Source: Candidatus Nealsonbacteria bacterium DGGOD1a (GTDB lineage: Bacteria; Patescibacteriota; Minisyncoccia; Minisyncoccales; UBA5738). Taken from it: 64,000 nt of DNA. Shown piece by piece: positions 1,412 through 51,536 of this stretch. The stretch is taken from positions 905,128 to 969,127 of the forward strand of contig CP092821.1 of assembly GCA_022530585.1 (NCBI GenBank). The letters are read 5' to 3'. Numbering within the stretch: the first letter of the stretch is position 1; every line of letters starts with the position of its first letter. Position numbers and translations under genes: made by a program. The notes beneath the pieces were generated by a model that saw nothing but the letters and a program-made list of their open reading frames with translations, had not been told where the DNA came from and made no database searches.

Positions 1412-4400
1412 TTATTTATAGAAACTTTCCAAGTTTTGCGGCCAAAAACTCAACGGCCAAGCGGAATTGTAAAATCTTTGATTGCCGATTTTTTTCATCG
1501 GCAATTTTTGCCTGCCGGCCAAGTCGGCGATCCTTGCCGGCAGGACAATCTCAATTTCCATCTCGCCGGTTTTATCAATTTCCAAGCCGAGATTTTCCAG
1601 CTCGCCTTGCAGATAGAACCAATTTTTGTTTTTGAGCGCGGCGGCGCAAATTTTGCTGTTGCCGCAGAACTTTTTCTCCGGCGACCAATAGACAATCGCG
1701 CGGCTGATTTTCAGATTTTGCGCGGCGGCCAATTTTTCATATTTCCAAAAGATATTGTTTTCTTTGAAACTTAAACTGGCAACGGCAGTTTTACCGCCGG
1801 AAAAAATCAATTTTAACTCTATGTTTTTCGCCAAATTGTCTTTTGAAAAATCTCGCGGCAATTCAAATTGCCCGGCAATGGCAAATTCTTGATTTTTATT
1901 TTTCGCTTTTTGCCATTTGATGAAAGCGGTTTTGACGGCAAGCGACCGCAAGGATTGGCGCGGCTTTTCAACTTCGGCGCTTGTTTGCAAAACTTCTCCC
2001 GTGGTTTGATTTTTTGCCATTGCTTGAAACAGCTCTTGGCCTTCAAAGACCGGCAATTCCACGAAGACCCCGCCGTCTTCGTCGGAAGTCAAATTGCCAA
2101 AATTCGCGCCGCCGTAGATAATGTTAATTTTTTCTCCTTCATCAATAGCGATATTGTCAAAATAAACGCCATAACTCTCTCCCGCGCGCGGCAATCCCGG
2201 ATAATTCACTCGAAATTGCTTGGCGATGCCCACCCCCGCGTCATTCTGGCTTTCCAAAATAATCGTGTGCACGCCGGGGTTCATTTCGGGTAAAAGAATT
2301 TCCGTATCAATAATTCCGTTTTCATCGACAATCGCTTCCCCGATTTTTTTCGGCTCGGAAAGAATCATTATCGGAACGATTGCGCCCGGAGCAAAACCGC
2401 CCAAGTAGAGACTTATCGTTTGCCCGGGCAAAATACCAATCGGGATATTGTTGATCAAAACTCCATTAACCGCGTCCATTACCGCTTGCCCCGCGGACGG
2501 CAAACAATCTTCCGCACCGGTTTTGTTGTGCGCGGCCAGAATATTGCAAGCGATAACATCATAACCTTTGGCATTGGGATGGAATAATCCTTTTGAGCGA
2601 TCATAGCGTATATTCAAATTTCCATTTGAATAATCAACCAAGTTGGCTAAAATTATTCTCATCTGATCCGTGTTGCTTAAGTAATTTAACAATGAGGTTG
2701 ATAAATTTTTTACTTGATTAAACGCTGTATTAACATCGCAATCCGCGCCACCGTCAAATACATTCAAGTGAACACCCAAGCATTGCTTCCAAGAATTATA
2801 CGCCGCCAACAAGTTATCAATCAGCGCGCGGGACTGCGCGTCGCCGTTGCCGTCAAGATTGAGCAGTCGCCTGATTTCGGCGTTAAGGTTGGCTTCTTTG
2901 ACGCCATTTGCCAACGCGGTTGCGGCATTGGCCGGACAAAGAGCGTTGCCGCCCAAAGAACTTTGCAAACTTGCCAGCTCCAGCCGCGGATTGCTTTGCG
3001 CAACCGCAAGCTTTGCTTGATTGATTTTTTCATTGATGGCATTCACTTTCCCGCGGGCATAGCCGATGTCTTCTTTGCGCAAACCCCCGCAATAGGAAAG
3101 CGATTTGGTGTTTCGGGGAAGAATGTCGGGATAATCCGCTTGAATCACGCGGGCCTTGGCAAAAGTTTGCAAAATTTTATTTTGCGCCCAAACTTCTTTG
3201 GCATAAAGCGCGTTGATCGCGGCATTGCTGTCAAATAAATTATCGTCAATATTCTTGCACGAAGCAAACATATCCACCAAAGTTTTGATCTCCGCCGGAG
3301 GATTGGGATATTCCTGTAACGCTTTGCGCAAGATATTGGGCAAAAGACAAGCTTGGATAATTTCTACGAATCCGGCACCGTTACCGCCCATGCCAACGGT
3401 AACCAAGTCCACATCAGCAGGAGTTAACCCGGCGTCATTCAGTTTGTTCAATGCTTGTTGAAGCTGTGAATCGGGCGCAATTTGATCGGCGGCCATATCG
3501 CCGATCACCGGCGGCTGGCTTCCATTTTCAATCTTTGCGCCGCTGCAGGTTAAATCGATCAAAACAATATCTTCGTCGTTCAATTCGGGATGGAATTTGT
3601 TTTTGTTGATTTTGGCATAGTTTTGCAGAGCGCGATGGCAAGAATTGTCGCCGGCAATCAATGTGTCGGTATAGGTGCCTTGCTCGTACCCGCGGGCAAG
3701 ATATTCTTCGGCGCCCTCAATGGAATTCCCCGCGCCTTCGCCGGATTGGTAGGAATCGCCCAAAGCGACATAGACGAATTTGTCTTTGCCGCCGGCAATC
3801 TCGTAATTTTCAAACGGTTGGACCAGCGGGAAACTGTCGGTGTAGCCGCCGATCGGGCAAGCGGCATTGCCAATGCCGTCGCCGTCCGGATCTTCCGTTT
3901 GGCATTGGGGCTGGTAATTGCCCGGTTTGCCGCGATAAATTTTGTTTTGATATTTATAGCCAAGCTCTTCTTGCGAATTCCAGTAATTGACATAGTCTTG
4001 GTAGGGATACAGCGTGCCGTAGAAATCATTCAGATAGATAATGTTGCCGGCGCTTTGAGTACTCACTCCAGCCGACGAGTTATATTCCGCCGGCAGATTG
4101 ATGTCATATCCGGTATTGTCGCGGAAGATATTGCGGGTGATTTCGGAATTGCCGGAACCATAGTTCACGATATATATTCCATCCAGATTGGATTCGATGA
4201 TGTTGTTGCTAATCTTGGCTTCCCAAGCGCCGTAATTCAAGCGGATGCCGGCGCTGTTGGTTGCGCCGCGGATGGTAAAGCCGTTGATTTCAGCCGGACC
4301 CGCCGCCGTGATCGCCGACACGGCGGGATCAACGGCTTCGATAACCGTGGCGCCCGGCGCGGCATTTTCAGCTTTTAAAATAATCCTGCCCCCGAAAGCC

Positions 4401-4594
4401 ACATTCTCGCGGTAAACTCCGGGCGCAACCAAAATCGTATCGCCATTACTCGCCGCGATGATCGCGGATTGGATGGTTTGGTATTCGCTATCCGGCGCAA
4501 CGGTGAATGTTGCGGCAAAAACCGAATCCGAAAACGAAAGAGACAAAACGCTAACTATAAAAACCAATACACGCTTTTTTAAATTAAGCATCAT
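1412..4594 (-). CDS. Large secreted protein: right-handed beta-helix (NosD/pectate-lyase-like) plus SGNH/GDSL hydrolase domain
   Basis: 1060 aa, ATG confirmed, signal/anchor VLVFIVSVLSLSF. Beta-helix-type repeats (IRGATNSAGIRLNY, NNIIESNLDGIYIVN, ITRNIFRDN). SGNH block I motif FVYVALGDSYQSGEGAG. Confidence 0.75.
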   Translation of the reverse strand: MMLNLKKRVLVFIVSVLSLSFSDSVFAATFTVAPDSEYQTIQSAIIAASNGDTILVAPGVYRENVAFGGRIILKAENAAPGATVIEAVDPAVSAITAAGPAEINGFTIRGATNSAGIRLNYGAWEAKISNNIIESNLDGIYIVNYGSGNSEITRNIFRDNTGYDINLPAEYNSSAGVSTQSAGNIIYLNDFYGTLYPYQDYVNYWNSQEELGYKYQNKIYRGKPGNYQPQCQTEDPDGDGIGNAACPIGGYTDSFPLVQPFENYEIAGGKDKFVYVALGDSYQSGEGAGNSIEGAEEYLARGYEQGTYTDTLIAGDNSCHRALQNYAKINKNKFHPELNDEDIVLIDLTCSGAKIENGSQPPVIGDMAADQIAPDSQLQQALNKLNDAGLTPADVDLVTVGMGGNGAGFVEIIQACLLPNILRKALQEYPNPPAEIKTLVDMFASCKNIDDNLFDSNAAINALYAKEVWAQNKILQTFAKARVIQADYPDILPRNTKSLSYCGGLRKEDIGYARGKVNAINEKINQAKLAVAQSNPRLELASLQSSLGGNALCPANAATALANGVKEANLNAEIRRLLNLDGNGDAQSRALIDNLLAAYNSWKQCLGVHLNVFDGGADCDVNTAFNQVKNLSTSLLNYLSNTDQMRIILANLVDYSNGNLNIRYDRSKGLFHPNAKGYDVIACNILAAHNKTGAEDCLPSAGQAVMDAVNGVLINNIPIGILPGQTISLYLGGFAPGAIVPIMILSEPKKIGEAIVDENGIIDTEILLPEMNPGVHTIILESQNDAGVGIAKQFRVNYPGLPRAGESYGVYFDNIAIDEGEKINIIYGGANFGNLTSDEDGGVFVELPVFEGQELFQAMAKNQTTGEVLQTSAEVEKPRQSLRSLAVKTAFIKWQKAKNKNQEFAIAGQFELPRDFSKDNLAKNIELKLIFSGGKTAVASLSFKENNIFWKYEKLAAAQNLKISRAIVYWSPEKKFCGNSKICAAALKNKNWFYLQGELENLGLEIDKTGEMEIEIVLPARIADLAGRQKLPMKKIGNQRFYNSAWPLSFWPQNLESFYK

Positions 4595-4694
4595 ATTAAA
4601 TGATTATAATTATGATTTTATTGATGCGCATATTACAAATTACCAACAAAATTATTTCATTTTATCAACCTCGACAAAAAATTCAAGTTTAAGT

Positions 4695-4742
4695 TTGCGC
4701 AAGGTCGCACCTTGCAAGCTTGCAAGGTGCGACCTTGCGCAA
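4695..4742. repeat. REPIN-like perfect palindrome (family 1, core CAAGGTCGCACCTTGCA), 48 bp
   Basis: TTGCGCAAGGTCGCACCTTGCAAG followed by its exact reverse complement. Lies 15 nt beyond the stop of the Y1 transposase gene. Confidence 0.9.
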
Positions 4743-4756
4743 CTATTCCCTTGGGA

Positions 4757-5494
4757 TTACCGCGGTAATGACCCCTTGTTCTTGATCCAGCTCTCGGTAA
4801 ATTCCTTAACCGTTCTCATTCCTTTTCCAATATCATCGGATTTGGCAAAAACTTTCAATAGAAAATCTCTTGCCGTAACCGATGGAAAATTTTTAATTCC
4901 GATACTGTCCAAATAACTCGACCATTTGTAATTATTTAAAAATTCAATCGCGGCCTTCAAGTCCTTAACTCCCTCCGTCTTCCAATCCGCGTCGACAAGT
5001 TCAACCGGATTTGAAAATACATATTCCGCCAAATGAATGAATTGATTGTTGTCGCCGGCATGGACCGCTTTGAACCTGCCTTGGAACAACGCACCCATCC
5101 CTTTTCTTTCGTATCTGTCATTAAAATAACCCGTATAACTGTTGCTTAACTTTTTCATAAAAAGAGACACTCCATCGTTGACAAGCGGCCGTAAAATCAA
5201 ATGATAATGATTCGGCATCAAAACAAACGCAATAATGTCAACCAGCAGTTCCCTTTTATGGTTTGACAAGGTCGCACCTTGCAAGCTTGCAAGGTGCGAC
5301 CTTGTCAAACTTTTTTTCCGGCGATCTTGAATCCTTTGGGCCATTCTCACAAAATTGCGGTCATTGCATTCATAAAGAGAAAAAATAAAACGGTAATAAT
5401 CGGAGTCATCCATAAAAACAATTCTTTTCTCTACGCCGCGGTTAAAGGTATGGTAAACTTCGCCGACAATAAATTCCCGTTTTGAATTTGGCAT
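4757..5494 (-). CDS. REP-associated tyrosine transposase (RAYT) / IS200-like Y1 HUH transposase
   Basis: 245 aa, ATG confirmed. N-terminal GEVYHTFNRGVEKRIVF, HUH motif MPNHYHLILRP, Tyr motif AEYVFSNPVE. No tnpB partner. Bracketed by family-1 palindromes. Confidence 0.8.
   Translation of the reverse strand: MPNSKREFIVGEVYHTFNRGVEKRIVFMDDSDYYRFIFSLYECNDRNFVRMAQRIQDRRKKSLTRSHLASLQGATLSNHKRELLVDIIAFVLMPNHYHLILRPLVNDGVSLFMKKLSNSYTGYFNDRYERKGMGALFQGRFKAVHAGDNNQFIHLAEYVFSNPVELVDADWKTEGVKDLKAAIEFLNNYKWSSYLDSIGIKNFPSVTARDFLLKVFAKSDDIGKGMRTVKEFTESWIKNKGSLPR
5261..5310. repeat. Family-1 perfect palindrome (50 bp) located inside the RAYT coding sequence, in frame
   Basis: GTTTGACAAGGTCGCACCTTGCAAG plus its exact reverse complement. 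It encodes ...SLTRSHLASLQGATLSNHK... just upstream of the HUH motif. Confidence 0.9.
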
Positions 5495-5528
5495 AAATTT
5501 ATAATAACTAAATTATATCTAAGCCGAA

Positions 5529-5584
5529 AAAGTTGCGCAAGGTCGCACCTTGCAAGCTTGCAAGGTGCGACCTTGCGCAACTTT
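5529..5584. repeat. Family-1 perfect palindrome, 56 bp
   Basis: AAAGTTGCGCAAGGTCGCACCTTGCAAG plus its exact reverse complement, 35 nt upstream of the RAYT start codon. Confidence 0.9.
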
Positions 5585-5725
5585 GTTTTGCTGGACGGCG
5601 TTGACAATATGGATTAGGGAAAACAAAAAGCCTCTTCGATTAGGAAGAGGCTTTTTGCTACGCCCGCCGCCGCGCAAGGCTTTGGCAAGGCACGCCCGTC
5701 CACAAGAAAGGCGATTTGGAAACTG

Positions 5726-7909
5726 CTATTGAAGGTACACCGCCGGGCTGATCCAAGTGGATTCTCCGTTCATGTAAGACGAGGAAGCACTAACAGGAGC
5801 AGCTGAAGTGTGGCCCCACGCAATACCCTTAATCCTTATGTCGTATGTACCCGGACCGCCACGAGTAACAGATGAGTTGGTGGTATTGGCAGTCACCGCA
5901 AAGTTTGCCGACGTTCCCGCCGCAATCTTATAGGTTGTGCCCACGGCAACAGTGCCGGACGGTTGGACAAAATTAACATCAGTCAGACGATAATGAGTAC
6001 CACTCATAACAGTCTCAACGATGAAAGGATCAGTGGTGCTGGCAGTAATATACACATCACCCGTTACGGCCGCAACCTGGATATTGAAGGTCGCAGTCAG
6101 AGTTGAGCTGGCACCCGAGTACGAACCCTGCGTGTTGTCTGTGGTGATGCTGGCCAAAGTAAACACCGGGCCCTCGCCATAGACATACGCCGCATTGCTC
6201 GTCGCGGTACCAGTGCCGGTAAAGGCGGCACCGTTCGTTTTGGAACCAGAGATACTGGTACCGGTCACGGTAACAATATATGTGTATCCATCTTCAGTCG
6301 CGGTCGGAGATGTAACCGTCAACTGATCGTCAACTTTGATCGACAAAGTTTTGGTGGTATCTTTGGGAACCGTGTAGTTCAAATCAGAGAAAGTGGCGTT
6401 TCCACTCGTGGAACCAGGAGTTGCCGTTCCAATAACGGTACCGCTGTCATCAACCAAGTAAACCGTATCAGGAATCTGATTTGTTCCGGTTGTGCTCGCG
6501 AACATGATGTCGGTAACCGTTTCAATCAACATATCATCCTTGGTCGCTTTCACATCGAATGACATCAATTGCGCGCCAACGATATCTCCGTTGGAATCAG
6601 CAACGACATTGCGTTTTTTCGGCGAATTGGCGTTCAAGCTCACGGTCAGCGTGGCGCTTCCGGTTTGCGAAGCATTGACGCTGAAAGTCCGGTAATTGCC
6701 TGTCGTCCAAGCCGCCGCGTTGGCTAAACCGCCGTATTGATTCAAACCGGCCTGGTCAACCGCGCGCACGCTCGTCGCCGAAGGAGTGCCGATAATAATG
6801 TTCTGCTTGCTTCCCGCGGTCGTTACAAACAAACCGCTCGAAATGCCAGGCAAAACATCAACTTTGACGGTCAACACTTTGCTGGTATTCACCGGCACAA
6901 CCACTTTGCTGGTAAATCCGGCAAGAGTGATCTGATAGTCGCTGGCCGACACTTTGGAAACCGTGGTGGAATTCAAAGCGCTGGTCGCAATTTCGGTGTC
7001 CCCATCATACAAATACACATTGGTAAAGTATGAATAAGGTTGAGAATTGAATCTCAAGGTAACGCGCTGGACATCAACATCCGAACCGGTAGCCTTGACT
7101 TTCAAACCCATCACCGCGACTTTGCTGTCGCCTTCATACGCCTTCACGCCATCGGCCGGGCTCGGATTGAGCGAAACCGTGATCGCGCCTTCCGTGCCGG
7201 TCTGGGTCACGCCAGAACCAGTGCTTGATCCTGTCGCGCAAGATTCGCCGGTCGTGGGGCTATAACCGGTGGTCGAAGTGCAACCAGCCGGCAAATTGCT
7301 GACGGTCGCGCAAGATTCGCCGGTGGTCACGCTGTAACCGGTGGTCGAAGTGCAACCAGCCGGCAAGCCACCGGTTGTTCCGGTTGTTCCGGTTGTTCCT
7401 CCGGTTGTTCCGACGGTACCCGCCAACATCGCGTTCAATTTCGCGCGAGTCGACGCACCGACGAATCCGGTTCCCGCGGTCAAACCGACCGGGGTCAAAA
7501 CTTCCGCGGCATATTTGTTCTGGAACGCAACCACCGCGGTTTTGGTCAAACCGCCAAAATAAGTGGTTTCAAATCCCGCCGAACCAACACCTGTCGCCGC
7601 GACTCTGGTGTTAGTATCGGAATTCAACAAGGCTTGCAAACATTTGACATCGTTCCCGGTGGAACCAAGAGTCAAATTATTCGAAAAAGTGATACCCGTG
7701 CAAGCGGCGACATTCGTGTTCACTACGCCGCTGGCAGTCGTTCCTGACGAGGTGCCGCCCAATTGGCCCATCAAACCCGACAATTGGGATTGAAGAGCGG
7801 CAATCTGGGCCGCCAATTCTTCCGCGGTGGCCGCCTGCGCGTTGGACGCGACAGTCGTTCCCGCGATCGCCAAGGCAATCATGCCCGCGATTAATTTCTT
7901 GCTATTCAT
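5726..7909 (-). CDS. Cell-surface protein with peptidoglycan-binding-like domain and Cys-containing tandem repeats
   Basis: 727 aa, ATG confirmed, N-terminal anchor/signal, coiled AEELAAQIAALQSQL. PG_binding_1-like segment (GNDVKCLQALLN...TKTAVVAFQNKY). Two LPAGCTSTTGYSxTTGESCAT repeats. The rest is Thr/Ser/Gly-rich. Confidence 0.7.
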   Translation of the reverse strand: MNSKKLIAGMIALAIAGTTVASNAQAATAEELAAQIAALQSQLSGLMGQLGGTSSGTTASGVVNTNVAACTGITFSNNLTLGSTGNDVKCLQALLNSDTNTRVAATGVGSAGFETTYFGGLTKTAVVAFQNKYAAEVLTPVGLTAGTGFVGASTRAKLNAMLAGTVGTTGGTTGTTGTTGGLPAGCTSTTGYSVTTGESCATVSNLPAGCTSTTGYSPTTGESCATGSSTGSGVTQTGTEGAITVSLNPSPADGVKAYEGDSKVAVMGLKVKATGSDVDVQRVTLRFNSQPYSYFTNVYLYDGDTEIATSALNSTTVSKVSASDYQITLAGFTSKVVVPVNTSKVLTVKVDVLPGISSGLFVTTAGSKQNIIIGTPSATSVRAVDQAGLNQYGGLANAAAWTTGNYRTFSVNASQTGSATLTVSLNANSPKKRNVVADSNGDIVGAQLMSFDVKATKDDMLIETVTDIMFASTTGTNQIPDTVYLVDDSGTVIGTATPGSTSGNATFSDLNYTVPKDTTKTLSIKVDDQLTVTSPTATEDGYTYIVTVTGTSISGSKTNGAAFTGTGTATSNAAYVYGEGPVFTLASITTDNTQGSYSGASSTLTATFNIQVAAVTGDVYITASTTDPFIVETVMSGTHYRLTDVNFVQPSGTVAVGTTYKIAAGTSANFAVTANTTNSSVTRGGPGTYDIRIKGIAWGHTSAAPVSASSSYMNGESTWISPAVYLQ
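7233..7409. repeat. Intragenic tandem repeats: 72-bp unit x ~1.9, followed by CCGGTTGTT 9-mer x3(+1)
   Basis: GTCGCGCAAGATTCGCCGGT... recurs with period 72 (7233 and 7305). CCGGTTGTT is repeated at 7371-7397 and again at 7401-7409, encoding a (GTT)n tract. Confidence 0.85.
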
Positions 7910-8050: not shown

Positions 8051-8096
8051 CGGGAGGGGTTTGAAAATCTTGATCAAGATTTTCAAACCCCTCCCG
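8051..8096. terminator. 46-bp perfect palindrome, possible non-canonical terminator
   Basis: CGGGAGGGGTTTGAAAATCTTGA|TCAAGATTTTCAAACCCCTCCCG, 15 nt after the stop at 8111. The T-run (GAAGCTTTTTTG) is on the plus-strand side only, so it is not a classical terminator for the minus-strand gene. Confidence 0.4.
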
Positions 8097-8110: not shown

Positions 8111-8872
8111 TTACTTATTCAACGAACTGTTAAGATAGTAGTCAATTGCCTGGCCGTAATTGCTTTCGTCATAAAGTTTCTTAACTTGCGCCAGATCATT
8201 GGCCTGTTCTTCGGACAACACCGTGCCTTTCCTGAAATAATCAATCAGCGAGCCAACAATCTCCTGATCGGACGCGGCCTCGGAAACATCGCCGGTACTG
8301 GTGGAATTCTGTTCCAATCCCAGCACCCCGTAAACCTGTCTCTCTTTTTCGTCAATATCTTTCATCGCCAAACCGGCTTCTTTCACGATCGCGCCCGCGT
8401 TGGCCGGATTTTGCTTGACCATTGACGCCACTTCTTTCTTTGCCGCGGCCTTGGCGGTTTTGTATTCATAGAACGCCGCCGGCAAATTCTTTAATAAATT
8501 CTTTTGCGAGATCACATCAATCTCCTCAAGCCGTTTGGCCGCGAGCAACAAATTGGCCGCCGGATTTTTGTCCTGGCCGGTGGCAATCGCCATTCCCTTT
8601 TCGGTGGCCTTTTTTAACGCGTACAGCGGCTGGCCCGGCAACGCGCTTTGCGATGCCGCCACGGTTCCGCCCGCCAATCCCGCGATCAATAACCCGGCAA
8701 ACGCCGCGCGATATTGAAAAACGAAATTTGACGCCAATGAAAGAAGCGACTGTTTATGTCCTATCGCTTCCTGTCCTAGAATCCGCGCCTTGCTCAAAAC
8801 CGCCCAGTCCGCATCGGGTTTGATCTCCCTTAAAGTTCTTATTTGATTGATCAATTCTTTTTCGCCGTTCAT
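8111..8872 (-). CDS. Putative anti-sigma / DUF5667-like membrane protein
   Basis: Directly downstream of the ECF sigma gene. One TM segment (AAFAGLLIAGLAGGTVAA). Start moved to ATG 8872 (MNGEKELINQ...) because the first 31 track codons (MQSCKVRPCKT...) are encoded by palindrome 8932-8993. Confidence 0.5.
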   Translation of the reverse strand: MNGEKELINQIRTLREIKPDADWAVLSKARILGQEAIGHKQSLLSLASNFVFQYRAAFAGLLIAGLAGGTVAASQSALPGQPLYALKKATEKGMAIATGQDKNPAANLLLAAKRLEEIDVISQKNLLKNLPAAFYEYKTAKAAAKKEVASMVKQNPANAGAIVKEAGLAMKDIDEKERQVYGVLGLEQNSTSTGDVSEAASDQEIVGSLIDYFRKGTVLSEEQANDLAQVKKLYDESNYGQAIDYYLNSSLNK

Positions 8873-8931
8873 AGGTTTTTTGAGCCTGATAAAGTTATGA
8901 CGCAAAACCTTAAAAAATGTTACAGTGGGAC

Positions 8932-8993
8932 AAGTTTTACAAGGTCGCACCTTGCACGATTGCAATCGTGCAAGGTGCGACCTTGTAAAACTT
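8932..8993. repeat. Family-1 palindrome variant, 62 bp perfect
   Basis: AAGTTTTACAAGGTCGCACCTTGCACGATTG plus its exact reverse complement. Same AAGGTCGCACCTTGCA core, different centre. Lies between the sigma and anti-sigma genes. Confidence 0.9.
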
Positions 8994-8994
8994 C

Positions 8995-9498
8995 TTAAGA
9001 CAATTTAGTTCGCAGTTCTTTCATTGCCCGATGGAGCAAAACCCGGGTGGCTTCTTCAGAGCGATCCAGAAGGTGGGACACCTCCTTGATCGGCATATCT
9101 TCAAGGTAACGCCAGATGATGGCGTTTTGGTAATCTTCGTTCAAATCCACCATGGCTTTGCGCACGGTTTCCATATCCGAAGCCAGAACCGCTCGCTGTT
9201 CCAGATCAACCTTGGTATCAGCCAGCTGGCTCTCGACCAGCTCCGGCGAAACCGTTTGAATCTTGGCTTTGGCGCGGTAATGGTCGATCACCAAATTTTT
9301 GGCGATTTTGTACAGAAAAGCCCGCGGGTTTTTAATTTCATTCGGATTTGTTTTATAACTCTCCCATCCTTTGGCGAAAGTTTCCGAAGTCAAATCCTGC
9401 GCGATTTCCTTTGAATTCACGCGCAAAAAGACAAACCGGTAGATTTTTTCCACATGGTCGTCATATATCCGGCTGAATTTTCCCTGAATTTTATCCAT
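8995..9498 (-). CDS. RNA polymerase ECF-type sigma-70 factor
   Basis: Region 2 (IYRFVFLRV..AQDLTSETFAKGW) and region 4 (IIWRYLEDMPIKEVSHLLDRSEEATRVLLHRAMKEL) signatures. Track start 9507 is TTG; first ATG is 9498. Confidence 0.85.
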   Translation of the reverse strand: MDKIQGKFSRIYDDHVEKIYRFVFLRVNSKEIAQDLTSETFAKGWESYKTNPNEIKNPRAFLYKIAKNLVIDHYRAKAKIQTVSPELVESQLADTKVDLEQRAVLASDMETVRKAMVDLNEDYQNAIIWRYLEDMPIKEVSHLLDRSEEATRVLLHRAMKELRTKLS

Positions 9499-9631
9499 AA
9501 TTATCAAACAGCATAATTACCGCTTGTTTTATAAAGCGGCTTAATCAATCGTGTCCTATCAAATATATCACAATTCCCGACAAAAAACAAGCTAAAAGCT
9601 ATTGACAAATCGGCGACACACTGATCTAATT

Positions 9632-10514: not shown

Positions 10515-10641
10515 ATTGCGAAACCATTAAATTCAAATACCGTTGAAGGTCTAACCCTTGCGATTACGCAAGGGACAGACCCCAAAAGCCAAGCGCGACG
10601 CAATGCTCAAAGCATTGCAGTAGCAATGCTTTGAGCATTGC
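10515..10641 (+). repeat. Family-2 nested-stem element (copy A), followed by a 42-bp palindrome
   Basis: ATTGCGAAACCATTAAATTCAAATAC..GGTCTAACCCTTGCG-ATTA-CGCAAGGGACAGACC (core 10548-10581)..CCCAAAAGCCAAGCG. Then GCAATGCTCAAAGCATTGC-AGTA-GCAATGCTTTGAGCATTGC (10600-10641). Confidence 0.85.
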
Positions 10642-40849: not shown

Positions 40850-42127
40850 TTACTTCTTAAATCTCTTTTTGATCTCGCCCACCACCGTGCCCAGCTTCAG
40901 GCTTTCCTGCTTGCCGGTTTCCATATCGCGCAGAATAATCGACCCTTCAAGCGCTTCTTTCTGCCCCAAGAGCAAGGTGAATCTGGCGCCGTATTTATCG
41001 GCGATTTTCAATTGCGATTTGAGCGAATCGCGATCAAACGATTCTCCGGCCGAAATGCCGGCTTGGCGCAATTCCTCGAACAGCTTCAAACTTTTCTTCT
41101 TGCCCAAAACTCCCAATTGCGCCAAAAATACTTTGGCTTTTTTCTCCTCGCCCACTTTGATATCGGCGGCCTTCATCGCCAGAACGATCCGATCGACCCC
41201 CAAAGCGCCGCCCATGGCCGGCGTTTCCTTGCCTCCCAGAACTTTCACCAATCCGTCGTAACGGCCGCCGCCGCCCATGGCCATCTGCCCGCGGCTATCC
41301 TGCCCGCCTTGGTAAATTTCGAAAACCGTGCGCGTGTAATAATCCAAACCGCGCACCAAATAGGGATTGAGCCGGTAAGGCAAGCCGATTTCTTCCAAGT
41401 ATTCCAAAACTTCTTTAAAATGACTTTTGCATTCTTCGCAAAGATGATCCACGATCTGCGGCGCCTGCGCGCGGACGGCTTGGCATTTGTTCTCTTTGCA
41501 ATCCAGCACCCGCAAAGGATTTTCTTTGACCCGGCGCTTGCAATCCGCGCACAAAGCCGATTCGCGGCCGCGCAAATAACCGGCCAAAGTTTTGCGGTAA
41601 TACGGCCGGCACAACGCGTCGCCGATGCTGTTGATTTCAATGGCGATATTCCCCAGCCCGAGTTCCTTTAGAATATTATAATAAATTTGAATGATCTGCG
41701 CGTCGATGATCGCGCCCGTTTGGCCAAAGACTTCAAACCCCAACTGCCAAAACTGCCGGTAACGGCCCGCTTGCGGCTTTTCGCTGCGGAAAAACGGCCC
41801 GTAATACCAAAGCCTGACCGGCTGGGGCCAGTTGGCCATTCCGTTTTCCAAATAAGAACGAACGATTGACGGCGTCCCCTCGGGCCGCAGAGTCAAATTA
41901 TCTCCGCCCCGGGTCTTGAGCGAATACATTTGTTTTTGCACGATATCGGTCGTGGCGCCCGTGCTTTTCACAAAAAGATCGCTGTCTTCCAAAATCGGCG
42001 TTTCAATGCGGTTAAAATTATAAAACTCCGCGATCTCCTTGGCGGTTTCATAGACTTTTTCGTAATATTTCTGATCATCCGGAAGAATGTCGTGCATACC
42101 GGTAACCGATTGGAATTTTGGTTTCAT
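40850..42127 (-). CDS. hisS: Histidine--tRNA ligase
   Basis: Class II aaRS motifs (LRPEGT, YYGPFFRSEKPQAGRYRQFWQ, GGGGRYDGLV) and a C-terminal anticodon-binding domain. Confidence 0.95.
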   Translation of the reverse strand: MKPKFQSVTGMHDILPDDQKYYEKVYETAKEIAEFYNFNRIETPILEDSDLFVKSTGATTDIVQKQMYSLKTRGGDNLTLRPEGTPSIVRSYLENGMANWPQPVRLWYYGPFFRSEKPQAGRYRQFWQLGFEVFGQTGAIIDAQIIQIYYNILKELGLGNIAIEINSIGDALCRPYYRKTLAGYLRGRESALCADCKRRVKENPLRVLDCKENKCQAVRAQAPQIVDHLCEECKSHFKEVLEYLEEIGLPYRLNPYLVRGLDYYTRTVFEIYQGGQDSRGQMAMGGGGRYDGLVKVLGGKETPAMGGALGVDRIVLAMKAADIKVGEEKKAKVFLAQLGVLGKKKSLKLFEELRQAGISAGESFDRDSLKSQLKIADKYGARFTLLLGQKEALEGSIILRDMETGKQESLKLGTVVGEIKKRFKK

Positions 42128-42139
42128 CGAACAAAGTTA

Positions 42140-42258
42140 AAAGATAAAAATCAAAATGAAAAATGACAATGTAAAATTAAAAATTATCAAATTTTAAAAT
42201 TGTTTCATTTTAAATTTTGAACTGTCATTTTTCATTTTGATTTTTACATTTTTAATTT
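42140..42258. repeat. Family-5 cassette, copy 3
   Basis: AAAAATCAAAATGAAAAATGACAATGTAAAATT ... ACTGTCATTTTTCATTTTGATTTTTACATTTTTAATTTT, between the hisS start and the lepB stop. Confidence 0.85.
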
Positions 42259-42816: not shown

Positions 42817-42903
42817 AATGAAAATTTGATTAAAATATGCTTTTATCATAACAAAAGAAAACAACTTCCGCAAGTCGTCCGATTCTGCTATAATTACTCA
42901 ATT

Positions 42904-43500
42904 ATGGAGCAAAAAACTATCTTAATCGTCGGGTTGGGCAATCCCGGGCAGGATTATCGCCGCACCCGGCACAATATGGGTTTTATGGCCGCGGACGCGT
43001 TTGCCAAAAAACACAATTTTGGCGATTTTGCGATGGTCGAAGATAACGCGATGGTTTCGGCGGGCGAATTCGGCGGCAAGACCGTTATTCTAGCCAAGCC
43101 GCAAACATTTATGAATAAATCCGGGATCGCGGCCAAGCGGTTGGCCAAGCGCTATTCCCTGTTTAAAAACAAAAAGTTTGACAATCTCTGGGTTATCAAC
43201 GACGATTTGGACATCCCTCTTGGAAAAATAAAAATTTCCCAAAACCGCAACGCCGCCGGCCACAAAGGCGCGCAATCGATTATTGACCAAATGAAAACCA
43301 AAAATTTTGTCCGCTTCCGCGTCGGCATCGCGCCCCATACCGCGACCCTGAAAAAAATCCCCGGCGACAAATTGGTTCTAAAAAAAATCTCCCCCAAGGA
43401 GCAAATAGAATTCGACAAAGCTGTTGATTTGACCGTCTCGGCCATAGAAACCGCGCTGGCTGAAGGAATCGAAAAATCAATGACCGAATTCAACCAATAA
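42904..43500 (+). CDS. pth: Peptidyl-tRNA hydrolase
   Basis: LIVGLGNPGQDYRRTRHNMGF... Start moved to ATG 42904. Confidence 0.9.
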   Translation: MEQKTILIVGLGNPGQDYRRTRHNMGFMAADAFAKKHNFGDFAMVEDNAMVSAGEFGGKTVILAKPQTFMNKSGIAAKRLAKRYSLFKNKKFDNLWVINDDLDIPLGKIKISQNRNAAGHKGAQSIIDQMKTKNFVRFRVGIAPHTATLKKIPGDKLVLKKISPKEQIEFDKAVDLTVSAIETALAEGIEKSMTEFNQ

Positions 43501-43511
43501 TTTAGCATTTT

Positions 43512-43551
43512 CAAGGTCGCACCTTGCCATAATCGGCAAGGTGCGACCTTG
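43512..43551. repeat. Family-1 hairpin variant (17-bp perfect stem)
   Basis: CAAGGTCGCACCTTGCC-ATAATC-GGCAAGGTGCGACCTTG, 12 nt after the pth stop. Confidence 0.9.
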
Positions 43552-47443: not shown

Positions 47444-47487
47444 TCAAAAGGGTCCGACCCTTTTTAAAAAGGGTCGGACCCTTTTGA
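47444..47487. repeat. Family-3 perfect palindrome (44 bp), core AAAAGGGTC(C/G)GACCCTTTT
   Basis: TCAAAAGGGTCCGACCCTTTTT plus its exact reverse complement, 17 nt upstream of the DUF134 start. Confidence 0.9.
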
Positions 47488-50399: not shown

Positions 50400-51536
50400 T
50401 CATATTCCCAAATTCGGTTCGGATGTCAAATCATCAGGGCTGGCAACCGCCTCCCCCCTTTTAAAAGCAAAGTAGCCCGCGACTCCGGCCATGGCCGCGT
50501 TATCCATTGATAAATCCGCGCCGGGCGCGAGAAATTTCATATTCAGTTCATCAGCCGCTTTTTGCATTGCCTCGCGCAAAGCCGCATTGGCGCTCACGCC
50601 GCCGCCGATAATGATTGATTTGGCGGCAAATTCTTTGGCCGCCCGCGCCGTTTTTGAAACCAGCACATCAACGATCGCCTGTTGAATCTCAAAACTCATC
50701 ATTCGCGGATATTCCGGCGATTTTCGCGTTTCTTCGTTCTGCTTTTGATGCGCGTACAGCACCGCGGTTTTCAATCCCGAAAAACTGAAATTGTAATTTT
50801 TTTGGGCAATCATCGGCCGCGGCAATTTGACTTTGGTTTCCGAAGGAGCATCTAAAAGGGTCGGACCCTTTTTATTCAAAAAGGGTCCGACCCTTTTAGA
50901 ATATTTTTGGGCATATTTTGCAATCTCCGGGCCGCCGGGATAGCCCAAGCCCAAAATGCGCGCGGCTTTGTCAAAACACTCGCCCGCCGCGTCATCTTGG
51001 GTTTGTCCCAGCAATTTGTAATCGCCGATGCCGCTAGCCAAGAACAACAGCGTGTGTCCGCCCGAAACCACCAAACAAACCGCCGGCAAATAGTTTTTGG
51101 CAAATTTTTCTTCGCCGATTTTCAAAGTTATCAAATTCGCCAAAAAATGCGCCTCCAAATGATTGGCTCCCGCCAACGGCAAGTTGTATTTCTTCGCCAA
51201 ATCTTGCGCGAAATTTATTCCCGTCCATAGGCACGGATCCAAGCCCGGCCCTTGCGTTACGACGATAAATTTTAATTTTGATAAATCAAATTTTTTTGTC
51301 GCGTCTTCAAAAACGAAAGGCAGATTTTTCTGATGCTCGCGTTTTGCCAAAAACGGATACACTCCGCCGTATCCGGCGTGCAATTCGGTTTGCGAAGAAA
51401 CAACATTGGACAGCGCCTCAATCTTCTCCAATTTCCCCTTATCCTCCTTTGCCCGCAAAACGCTGATTGAAGTGTCGTCGCAAGAAGTCTCAATCGCCAA
51501 AAAATACAGTTCTCCGCCTTTTTTTGCAAATTGCAT
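50400..51536 (-). CDS. tsaD: tRNA N6-adenosine threonylcarbamoyltransferase TsaD, carrying a ~17-aa palindrome-encoded insertion
   Basis: ATG confirmed. IETSCDDTSISV, ANHLEAH, GLGYPGGPEI, NFSFSGLKT, IIGGGVSAN. See repeat 50851-50900. Confidence 0.9.
   Translation of the reverse strand: MQFAKKGGELYFLAIETSCDDTSISVLRAKEDKGKLEKIEALSNVVSSQTELHAGYGGVYPFLAKREHQKNLPFVFEDATKKFDLSKLKFIVVTQGPGLDPCLWTGINFAQDLAKKYNLPLAGANHLEAHFLANLITLKIGEEKFAKNYLPAVCLVVSGGHTLLFLASGIGDYKLLGQTQDDAAGECFDKAARILGLGYPGGPEIAKYAQKYSKRVGPFLNKKGPTLLDAPSETKVKLPRPMIAQKNYNFSFSGLKTAVLYAHQKQNEETRKSPEYPRMMSFEIQQAIVDVLVSKTARAAKEFAAKSIIIGGGVSANAALREAMQKAADELNMKFLAPGADLSMDNAAMAGVAGYFAFKRGEAVASPDDLTSEPNLGI
50851..50900. repeat. Family-3 palindrome (23-bp perfect arms, 4-nt centre) inside tsaD, in frame
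   Basis: TCTAAAAGGGTCGGACCCTTTTT-ATTC-AAAAAGGGTCCGACCCTTTTAGA. It encodes SKRVGPFLNKKGPTLL. Confidence 0.9.

Follow-up and report, generated by a model that had tools for sequence, protein, structure and literature searches.

An in-frame palindrome in a RAYT-like transposase gene of a Candidatus Nealsonbacteria genome as a putative third, intragenic cognate hairpin of a REPtron-like cassette

The gene and its palindromes

Our subject is a DNA palindrome that is read as protein. It lies in a stretch of 64,000 nucleotides (nt) from Candidatus Nealsonbacteria bacterium DGGOD1a (contig CP092821.1, positions 905,128 to 969,127), which we call the window and number from its first letter, and it sits inside an open reading frame (ORF) for a RAYT-like HUH/Y1 transposase that is bracketed by two further palindromes of the same kind (Table 1). 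An earlier note on this DNA, made from the letters alone, had pointed to a 50-bp perfect palindrome at 5261-5310, in frame inside the transposase ORF, and both the sequence and a repeat search bear this out: the segment is GTTTGACAAGGTCGCACCTTGCAAG followed by its exact reverse complement, with 25-nt arms that are 100% complementary and a spacer of 0 nt. In gene coordinates it covers nt 185-234, from the second base of codon 62 through codon 78, and it is translated in an open reading frame as (K)SLTRSHLASLQGATLSN. The note was also right to place this peptide in the linker before the HUH motif, since H96-Y97-H98 begins 17 residues past the palindrome-encoded segment, and right to call the palindrome the gene's own. 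Indeed, the window contains exactly three occurrences of a 38-bp core, CAAGGTCGCACCTTGCAAGCTTGCAAGGTGCGACCTTG (4700-4737, 5267-5304 and 5538-5575), as opposed to 0 in 100 shuffles: one within the gene and one in each of its flanks. Cognate repetitive extragenic palindromes (REPs) on both sides of the gene, which are one of the marks of a RAYT, are therefore found here (5529-5584 and 4695-4742).

The internal copy contains two inverted 15-nt mini-hairpins, CAAGGT-CGC-ACCTTG and CAAGGT-GCG-ACCTTG, set around a centre, CAAGCTTG. Each arm is itself a small hairpin, so that the unit has a doublet, REPIN-like design, which can be written as CAAGGTCGCACCTTG - CAAGCTTG - CAAGGTGCGACCTTG; most homologues have single hairpins instead. 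Folding as RNA (a 131-nt segment, -51.8 kcal/mol, z = -5.6 against shuffled sequence) and as DNA (a 71-nt segment, -29.9 kcal/mol, z = -10.3) both yield a single long hairpin. The earlier note had proposed to fold the messenger and to see whether the segment is a surface loop of the protein; in an AlphaFold2 model with an overall predicted local distance difference test (pLDDT) score of 83, residues 64-78 form a low-confidence loop (pLDDT <50) joining a helix to the HUH strand. A scan of positions 4500-5800 against Rfam gave generic hairpin matches only, far under the gathering scores. Across the 64-kb window the palindrome family numbers five copies, three of them at the RAYT-like gene and one of those inside it, and distal cognate copies are scarce: the window has 2 in 63 kb, and the distal flanks of the homologues have 3 in 227 kb.

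The 245-residue product of the ORF matches the Pfam family Y1_Tnp (PF01797) with an E-value of 6.3e-9 and 36.4 bits, above the cutoff of 23, and it has the features expected of the HUH/Y1 superfamily, namely an HUH motif, a single catalytic-type tyrosine and a profile score above the curated cutoff. In a protein alignment of 36 of its relatives (A1), N95, H96, H98, Y158 and N162 are invariant. Membership of the curated RAYT model was not reached, with NCBIfam NF047646 (REP_Tyr_transpos) giving 45.6 bits against a cutoff of 80. A fold search was needed because a sequence search of the PDB with the family profile returned 0 matches; Foldseek then placed closest 4er8_A, which is TnpA_REP bound to a REP hairpin, followed by 2xm3 and 2a6m (the ISDra2 and IS608 transposases). 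Taken together, the protein is predicted to be RAYT-like and to belong to a separate subfamily. A protein search found 2069 relatives, nearly all of them unnamed or called 'transposase', from Patescibacteria (the candidate phyla radiation, CPR). The best matches are 71-72% identical to the query, which is itself absent from the database, and at 240-278 amino acids (aa) they bracket its length. No second RAYT copy lies within the window, where the other tblastn matches were translated palindromes only.

Table 1. Features at the RAYT-like gene and members of its palindrome family in the window
Feature	Position	Strand	Remarks
RAYT-like HUH/Y1 transposase ORF	4757..5494	-	245 aa; window ORF list
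HUH motif H96-Y97-H98	5201-5209	-	within ORF 4757..5494
Catalytic-type Tyr158 (EYVFSNP)	5021-5023	-	within ORF 4757..5494
Intragenic 50-bp perfect palindrome	5261..5310	.	translated as S62-N78; REPIN-like doublet
Upstream cognate palindrome, 56 bp, perfect	5529..5584	.	ends 34 nt before ATG; terminator-like on both strands
Downstream cognate palindrome, 48 bp, perfect	4695..4742	.	starts 14 nt after stop codon
Dispersed family member, 62-bp perfect palindrome	8932..8993	.	shared mini-hairpins, other spacer
Dispersed family member	43512..43551	.	shared mini-hairpins, spacer CCATAATCGG; just past stop of ORF 42826..43500 (+)
TATAAT hexamer, candidate -10 box	5512..5517	-	between upstream palindrome and ATG; weak inference
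T7 run	5311..5317	+	adjoins palindrome; A7 on coding strand, gene nt 178-184

Occurrence across the gene family

The DNA of 160 homologous loci (L001-L160) was collected, and 135 non-redundant complete loci, at 38-72% aa identity and mostly from Patescibacteria/CPR, were counted. Each was scored for a word of at least 11 nt shared between the linker before the HUH motif and the gene's own proximal flanks, and a separate survey, in which structure was ignored, listed the words of each gene that recur outside it within the same locus. The linker matches both flanks in 86 of the 135 loci and one flank in a further 23, which makes 109 in total; it matches neither in 26, and in 20 of these the two flanks still match each other. 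In most loci the sole long word that the survey found is a hairpin 55-110 nt upstream of the HUH codons; its partners outside the gene are found at a distance of 0-70 nt from the start codon on the upstream side and of 0-30 nt from the stop codon on the downstream side. The match is also specific to the locus, since linkers share a 12-mer with their own flanks in 63 of 76 loci, whereas among 5700 cross-locus pairs only 156 share one; the remainder of the gene, about 4.5 times longer than the linker, has such a match in no more than 8 of 76 loci. Upstream and downstream flanks share a 12-mer with each other in 62 of the 76, so that retention of the internal copy is roughly on a par with that of the flanking pair (63 versus 62). 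In addition, this 100-nt linker stretch holds the gene's longest perfect hairpin in 50 of 79 genes, and paralogues of one genome (for example those in CAYIJU01, JAHCSD01 and JACPGX01) each have a different hairpin. All five deep sequence clusters contain the internal copy, at 40/53, 36/39, 22/27, 10/15 and 1/1 loci. The rayT gene of Escherichia coli, which served as a control, has REPs on both sides that share words of at least 14 nt mutually, and its interior shares no word of 10 nt or more with them.

With these counts an idea in the earlier note falls, at least as an event in this genome, namely that the element had inserted into its own mobilising gene and been tolerated there. The closest homologues (66-72% aa identity) already share the peptide and the palindrome in place, and alignment with orthologues, which the note had proposed in order to see whether the segment is an insertion, finds it present in the relatives, with a cognate hairpin in the great majority of loci and in every cluster. 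The note had further reasoned that its idea would fail if orthologues lacking REP-like repeats had a homologous peptide at this position; the peptide is indeed there, but these orthologues carry REP-like repeats too. An insertion, if there was any, would at most be ancient or repeatedly renewed, into a permissive loop.

Two loci have a cognate hairpin at a second intragenic site, downstream of the helix with the catalytic tyrosine (L051, gene nt 507-529; L059, gene nt 468-496), and the latter is without the linker copy; more than one protein loop can therefore host the repeat. Four database proteins in A1 (P0004, P0005, P0011 and P0038, columns 1-56) begin with N-terminal extensions such as VQGETLQQ... 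and MQGATLQK..., which are the translated upstream REP hairpin, each repeating the peptide from its internal hairpin. It follows that the start codons of these proteins have been mis-called.

What is conserved: DNA, RNA or peptide

At first sight the linker looks like a protein motif. The closest relatives in A1 carry the same peptide, SHLASLQGATL, and at least 90% of the aligned sequences have G73 and likewise T75, which gives a near-invariant G73-x-T75. The residues on either side of G-x-T, however, co-vary as reverse-complement codons (Q..L, K..F, I..Y, T..R and R..S), and what is indicated is therefore a DNA stem, NNNGGT-NNN-ACCNNN, and not a protein motif. A codon alignment anchored solely on the G-x-T codons (A2) allowed a 10-bp stem to be scored against controls in which the partners were slid. 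Pairing reaches 90% of the stem cells, versus 24-46% with slid partners; all seven of the seven non-anchor stem pairs have double-sided changes; and the covariation score is 0.545, versus at most 0.166 in the controls. Of the 46 non-Watson-Crick cells only 6 are G·U, and the wobble tolerance typical of RNA is therefore not apparent. In distant clades the hairpin is found in all three codon phases and encodes unrelated peptides, and the orientation of its asymmetric loop relative to the flanks is random, with counts of 27 versus 31, 29 versus 23 and 24 versus 24. Because codon phase varies, G·U is not enriched, loop orientation is random and the peptide falls in a low-confidence loop, what is constrained is a symmetric palindrome or hairpin of DNA, neither the protein nor the RNA, and the peptide is tolerated filler.

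How the internal copy evolves

Among the members of the window's clade the internal doublet is an orthologous one, with site, phase and internal spacer in common. Indeed, the 38-bp core, internal spacer included, is identical at 38 of 38 positions between the window and two loci of that clade, L001 and L002, and the rest of the gene has 67-71% nucleotide identity. In L001 the hairpins outside the gene are single and the one inside is a doublet. Internal copies also have pairs of their own: 17 of 68 internal hairpins have at least three perfectly paired positions in which they differ from the flanks (about 2% would be expected), the window's copy has six copy-specific stem pairs (GTTTGA/TCAAAC) differing from its flanks, and in L081 a private A>G / T>C compensatory pair, which is missing from the flanks of that locus, keeps the long stem intact. 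In L083, on the other hand, all six mini-hairpins, those of the two flanking copies and those of the internal one, have had their loop changed from CGC to TTC. Indels cluster at the palindrome's edges, including a duplicated foot in L083, and some of the 20 loci that have lost the copy still show decayed remnants of it. Given the orthologous core, the private stem pairs and the loop change common to all the copies of L083, the internal copy is inherited and kept paired, and it is also updated to the current repeat type.

Transcription-related signals

Between the upstream hairpin and the ATG a -10-like hexamer is present in 64 of 114 homologous loci, and in 18 of 91 control intervals. It often carries a TG extension and usually lies 5-12 nt past the hairpin and 6-9 nt before the ATG. 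As the box mostly ends so close to the start codon, this suggests that the transcripts may be near-leaderless or leaderless, with the upstream hairpin in the -35 region. The window's TATAAT at 5512-5517 was not listed by a simple sigma-70 scan, in which no -35 match passed, and it is a weak promoter candidate only.

Directly before the internal palindrome on the coding strand, the T7/A7 run at 5311-5317 forms both a terminator-like site, which this hairpin has on the antisense strand only, and a slippery A-run. A sense-strand intrinsic terminator or attenuator was considered and is ruled out, because in the window the hairpin is not followed by a U-run and because, across the loci, sense U-runs 3' of the internal hairpin are depleted (3% versus 11% in the control). 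An antisense terminator is likewise ruled out as a general explanation, because an A-rich 5' flank is found in 42% of loci only (control 16%). A-runs are about 3-fold enriched directly 5' of the internal hairpins in the family. In the window a -1 shift at A7 gives a frame that reads KFDKVAPCKLARCDLVKP, with a stop just beyond the palindrome, and a +1 shift stops immediately. A programmed frameshift or slippage cassette made of A7 and hairpin is a minor possibility, runs of A6 or longer occurring in only 14% of loci.

Interpretation and alternatives

What, then, is a palindrome of this kind doing in the middle of a gene? Judged on sequence comparison, the internal hairpin is a DNA-level cis element, ancestral to a CPR-centred gene family and kept matched to the two sites that flank the gene. 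We think that it may be the third, intragenic cognate hairpin of a REPtron-like cassette, recognised by the (putative) enzyme encoded there, and we rate the chances of this as about even. Such a cassette would have a set of three sites: one hairpin beside the promoter, one in the codons of the disordered linker before the HUH strand and one after the stop codon. The HUH/Y1 enzyme would recognise the internal hairpin as it does the flanking ones, on extruded or single-stranded DNA, and the gene, by carrying its own recognition site, would link enzyme and site genetically. In cis, the enzyme could then occupy its own gene or act on it, most simply as negative feedback in concert with the promoter-adjacent copy, and the linker peptide would follow passively from the sequence of the hairpin. 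A functional, perhaps autoregulatory, hairpin of this sort fits the conservation, the locus-specific co-evolution and the covariation of the stem, its function being putative. Also in favour of the three-site reading are the presence of the copy in all five clusters, the scarcity of cognate copies in distal flanks, the depletion of sense U-runs, the -10-like box beside the upstream copy, the fold match to TnpA_REP with its REP hairpin and the plasmid precedent discussed below. A bolder version, which we consider unlikely, though worth stating, makes the intragenic hairpin the primary cis site, comparable on a chromosome to an origin that lies within its initiator gene, and a protected master copy at which the enzyme binds or nicks its own coding DNA and limits expression, and from which the flanking and dispersed hairpins would be renewed. 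If true, this would explain how enzyme and site could have co-diversified into many private pairs within one small genome.

Several observations weigh against a role for the hairpin as a third cognate site. Twenty of the 135 loci keep matching flanks without an intact internal copy, which is therefore not indispensable. The window shows only a weak promoter candidate. Perfect palindromes can be maintained without selection by templated correction from arm to arm, and 'compensatory' changes do not, for that reason, prove selection. The random loop orientation is at odds with the strand-specific recognition known for IS608 and for E. coli TnpA_REP. A REPIN-like doublet lies in frame in the unrelated tsaD gene of the same window, so that a position within a gene is not in itself a sign of function. 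Finally, the roles in binding, cleavage and expression that we give the enzyme at the internal hairpin are proposals.

Some of these points are the very ones that favour the most serious competitor, in which the hairpin is a self-perpetuating passenger: an old in-frame REP insertion in a permissive, disordered loop, without function, that persists by overwriting. Homogenisation would come about through enzyme-mediated strand exchange, short-patch conversion or re-insertion beside existing hairpins, templated hairpin correction would keep the palindrome perfect, and the enzyme's preference for acting in cis would expose its own gene most. The low-confidence loop, the indels that gather beside the palindrome (with the duplicated foot in L083), the loss of the copy from loci with intact flanks, sometimes leaving remnants, the extra hairpins at a second position in L051 and L059 and the doublet of a different family in tsaD all sit comfortably with such a passenger, and the L083 loop change in all six mini-hairpins speaks for conversion and not for independent point mutation. 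Against a passenger stand the retention of the internal copy, which equals that of the flanking pair and extends to all the deep clusters, and the conservation by descent, at 38 of 38 nt, of a core with a spacer specific to the internal copy, the gene itself having diverged by about 30%. The private compensatory pair in L081, absent from that locus's own flanks, the marked excess of internal copies with private stem pairs and the purging of sense U-runs count against it too, and the idea still needs something, be it the enzyme or another process, that acts on the internal site. We regard it as possible, if on the doubtful side. A purely RNA-level element, working through ribosome pausing, RNase III cleavage, stability, or frameshifting or transcriptional slippage at A7, with no part for the transposase, could draw on the very stable RNA fold, the A-runs just 5' of internal hairpins and the stops that close both shifted frames in the window. 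An RNA structure requires neither identity to two flanking DNA sites nor tracking of them locus by locus, though, and G·U is not enriched, long A-runs are rare and no Rfam family comes near its threshold, all of which leaves this explanation improbable.

The two remaining alternatives seem to us hardly tenable. If the flanking REPIN had inserted into this genome's RAYT gene recently and only once, its frame kept by chance, we would expect what we see in the window, a core identical to both flanks in an intact ORF; but homologues at 66-72% identity share palindrome, peptide, site and phase, the query is not longer than its relatives and the trait recurs in 109 of the 135 loci. If, conversely, the enzyme needed the peptide (G73-x-T75, for example) and the palindrome were a by-product, the near-invariance of G73 and T75 in A1 would be natural enough. 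The residues flanking G-x-T nevertheless co-vary as reverse-complement codons, which only a nucleic-acid constraint can explain, distant clades place the hairpin in other phases with unrelated peptides, the region is modelled with pLDDT <50 and the hairpin is missing altogether in 20 loci.

Relation to known systems

The nearest relative of the proposed three-hairpin cassette is the REPtron, a RAYT (TnpA_REP) with its flanking REPs or bacterial interspersed mosaic elements (BIMEs), as exemplified by E. coli rayT (yafM) (PMC2817692, Nunvar 2010; PMC3479197, Messing 2012; PMC8266576, Corneloup 2021). The likenesses are considerable: an HUH/Y1 gene bracketed by cognate palindromic repeats, a repeat type of its own for each paralogue, a single gene copy per repeat type, and 4er8 as the nearest fold. 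Classical REPs are strictly extragenic, whereas in about 80% of the present loci the ORF itself contains a third copy, and the hairpins differ too in being perfect palindromes with random loop orientation and with few dispersed copies in the window and in the homologues' flanks. A REP-type GTAG/CGTC head, or any conserved 5' head tetranucleotide, was not evident by eye in the hairpin listings, no formal motif search having been made. The protein is also about 80 aa longer, its connection before the HUH motif is about 40 aa longer, and it scores under the NCBIfam RAYT cutoff. A fixed strand orientation of the three hairpins, as in the ends of IS608 or the inverted REPs of Nunvar, was looked for and not found, orientation being random. 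REPIN-RAYT systems (PMC3116915, Bertels & Rainey 2011; PMC5581495, Bertels 2017) form extragenic populations of tens to hundreds of copies. Like REPINs, the unit in the window is a doublet of inverted REP mini-hairpins that folds as one long hairpin, and compensatory changes preserve the long stem (as in L081); unlike them, it is present in 5 copies in the 64-kb window, of which three are at the gene and one is intragenic.

The insertion sequences (IS) of the IS200/IS605 family (IS608 and ISDra2) also have the HUH/Y1 fold, a hairpin-bordered gene and a promoter near one end, and their enzyme uses the bordering hairpins as single-stranded DNA. Their ends are imperfect, differ between left and right, are used on one strand and come in multiple identical copies of the element, whereas here we find perfect, near-identical palindromes, in random orientation (24 the same, 24 opposite), with an extra internal site. 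The multiple near-identical copies by which such elements are known are not seen, there being one gene in the window and divergent paralogues with different hairpins.

A cis site inside the coding region for the protein that acts on it has precedents elsewhere, for example in phage phiX174, where the origin is located within gene A. In plasmids, the double-strand origin (dso) of the pT181 family lies within repC and the pSK41 origin within rep, the peptide encoded there being dispensable or a linker (PMC5703833); pT181 RepC is a Rep_trans and not an HUH protein (PMC5714925). As in pT181 and pSK41, the site of the nicking or initiator protein would here be in its own coding sequence, with the specificities of site and protein co-varying between relatives. 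Those are plasmid and phage replicons with one origin, whereas ours is a chromosomal cassette with three sites, for which no role in replication is claimed.

Translated repeats have precedents as well, in the Rickettsia palindromic elements (RPEs), which Ogata et al. reportedly described in 2000 as inserted in frame in protein-coding genes. RPEs add, when translated, a segment at the surface of a protein, which still functions; they are scattered in many unrelated genes and are not known to have a cognate enzyme. The palindrome of the RAYT-like gene resembles them in being a palindromic repeat translated in frame, and the tsaD doublet at 50851-50900 is a direct parallel; it differs in lying in a putative mobilising gene, at a fixed position, conserved and co-evolving family-wide. 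Unlike a sporadic insertion of the RPE type, the RAYT-internal segment is present and conserved in orthologues.

The survey papers on RAYTs, REPINs and HUH enzymes that we covered place REPs only at the flanks or extragenically. Our search of the literature on these three subjects, with subscription-only articles outside its reach, found neither an intragenic REP or REPIN in rayt genes nor any RAYTs from CPR, and hence no prior description of what appears to be a conserved intragenic cognate hairpin in a RAYT-like cassette.

Neighbouring genes and other palindromes in the window

The cassette is placed between two large co-directional ORFs, 1412..4594 (-) of 1060 aa and 5726..7909 (-) of 727 aa, both of which look secreted or surface-located by sequence, with N-terminal hydrophobic segments and Thr/Gly-rich repeats. 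A hairpin with a T-run at 5624-5657 appears to terminate the upstream of these neighbours, ORF 5726..7909 (-). The dispersed family member at 8932-8993 starts 2 nt past the end of ORF 8995..9507 (-), counted from its stop, and precedes the next gene on that strand; it is also within the upstream stop-free extension (from 9004) of ORF 8111..8965 (-), whose start is a candidate only.

A second REPIN-like doublet family, AAAAGGGTC[C/G]GACCCTTTT, has copies at 47444-47487 and 50851-50900. The former is intergenic, about 70 nt past the stop of a ZIP-transporter ORF; the latter lies in frame inside tsaD (ORF 50400..51536 (-), Pfam TsaD, 1.5e-72) and is translated as SKRVGPFLNKKGPTLLD, adding about 19 residues relative to TsaD of Thermotoga maritima (6n9a_D), an RPE-like in-frame insertion in a housekeeping gene. 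The window contains no cognate RAYT for this family. Two more perfect palindromes are each single-copy in the window: 10600-10641, a doublet of the inverted mini-hairpins GCAATGCT-CAA-AGCATTGC and GCAATGCT-TTG-AGCATTGC, and 8051-8096, which has 23-nt arms and follows closely on the stop of ORF 8111..8965 (-). At 42133-42258 an imperfect, AT-rich palindrome about 126 bp long (with overlapping 67-nt arms that are 82% complementary) closely precedes the start of ORF 40850..42127 (-) and lies ahead of the next long plus-strand ORF, 42826..43500, and it could be a shared promoter or origin-like region.

What the finding means

The main case of a domesticated single-strand transposase that has its own population of repeats is provided by RAYTs and their REPs, and how such an enzyme is controlled, and how enzyme and repeat stay matched, are questions on both of which an intragenic hairpin offers a testable handle. 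The internal hairpin may be a built-in operator, a self-target or a protected master copy. There are also more general lessons. What looks like a 'conserved peptide motif', here G-x-T with the residues around it, can reflect a structure in the DNA, and the translation of repeats yields mis-called N-termini in the databases. CPR genomes, for their part, tolerate in-frame palindromic repeats in their genes, including a housekeeping gene such as tsaD.

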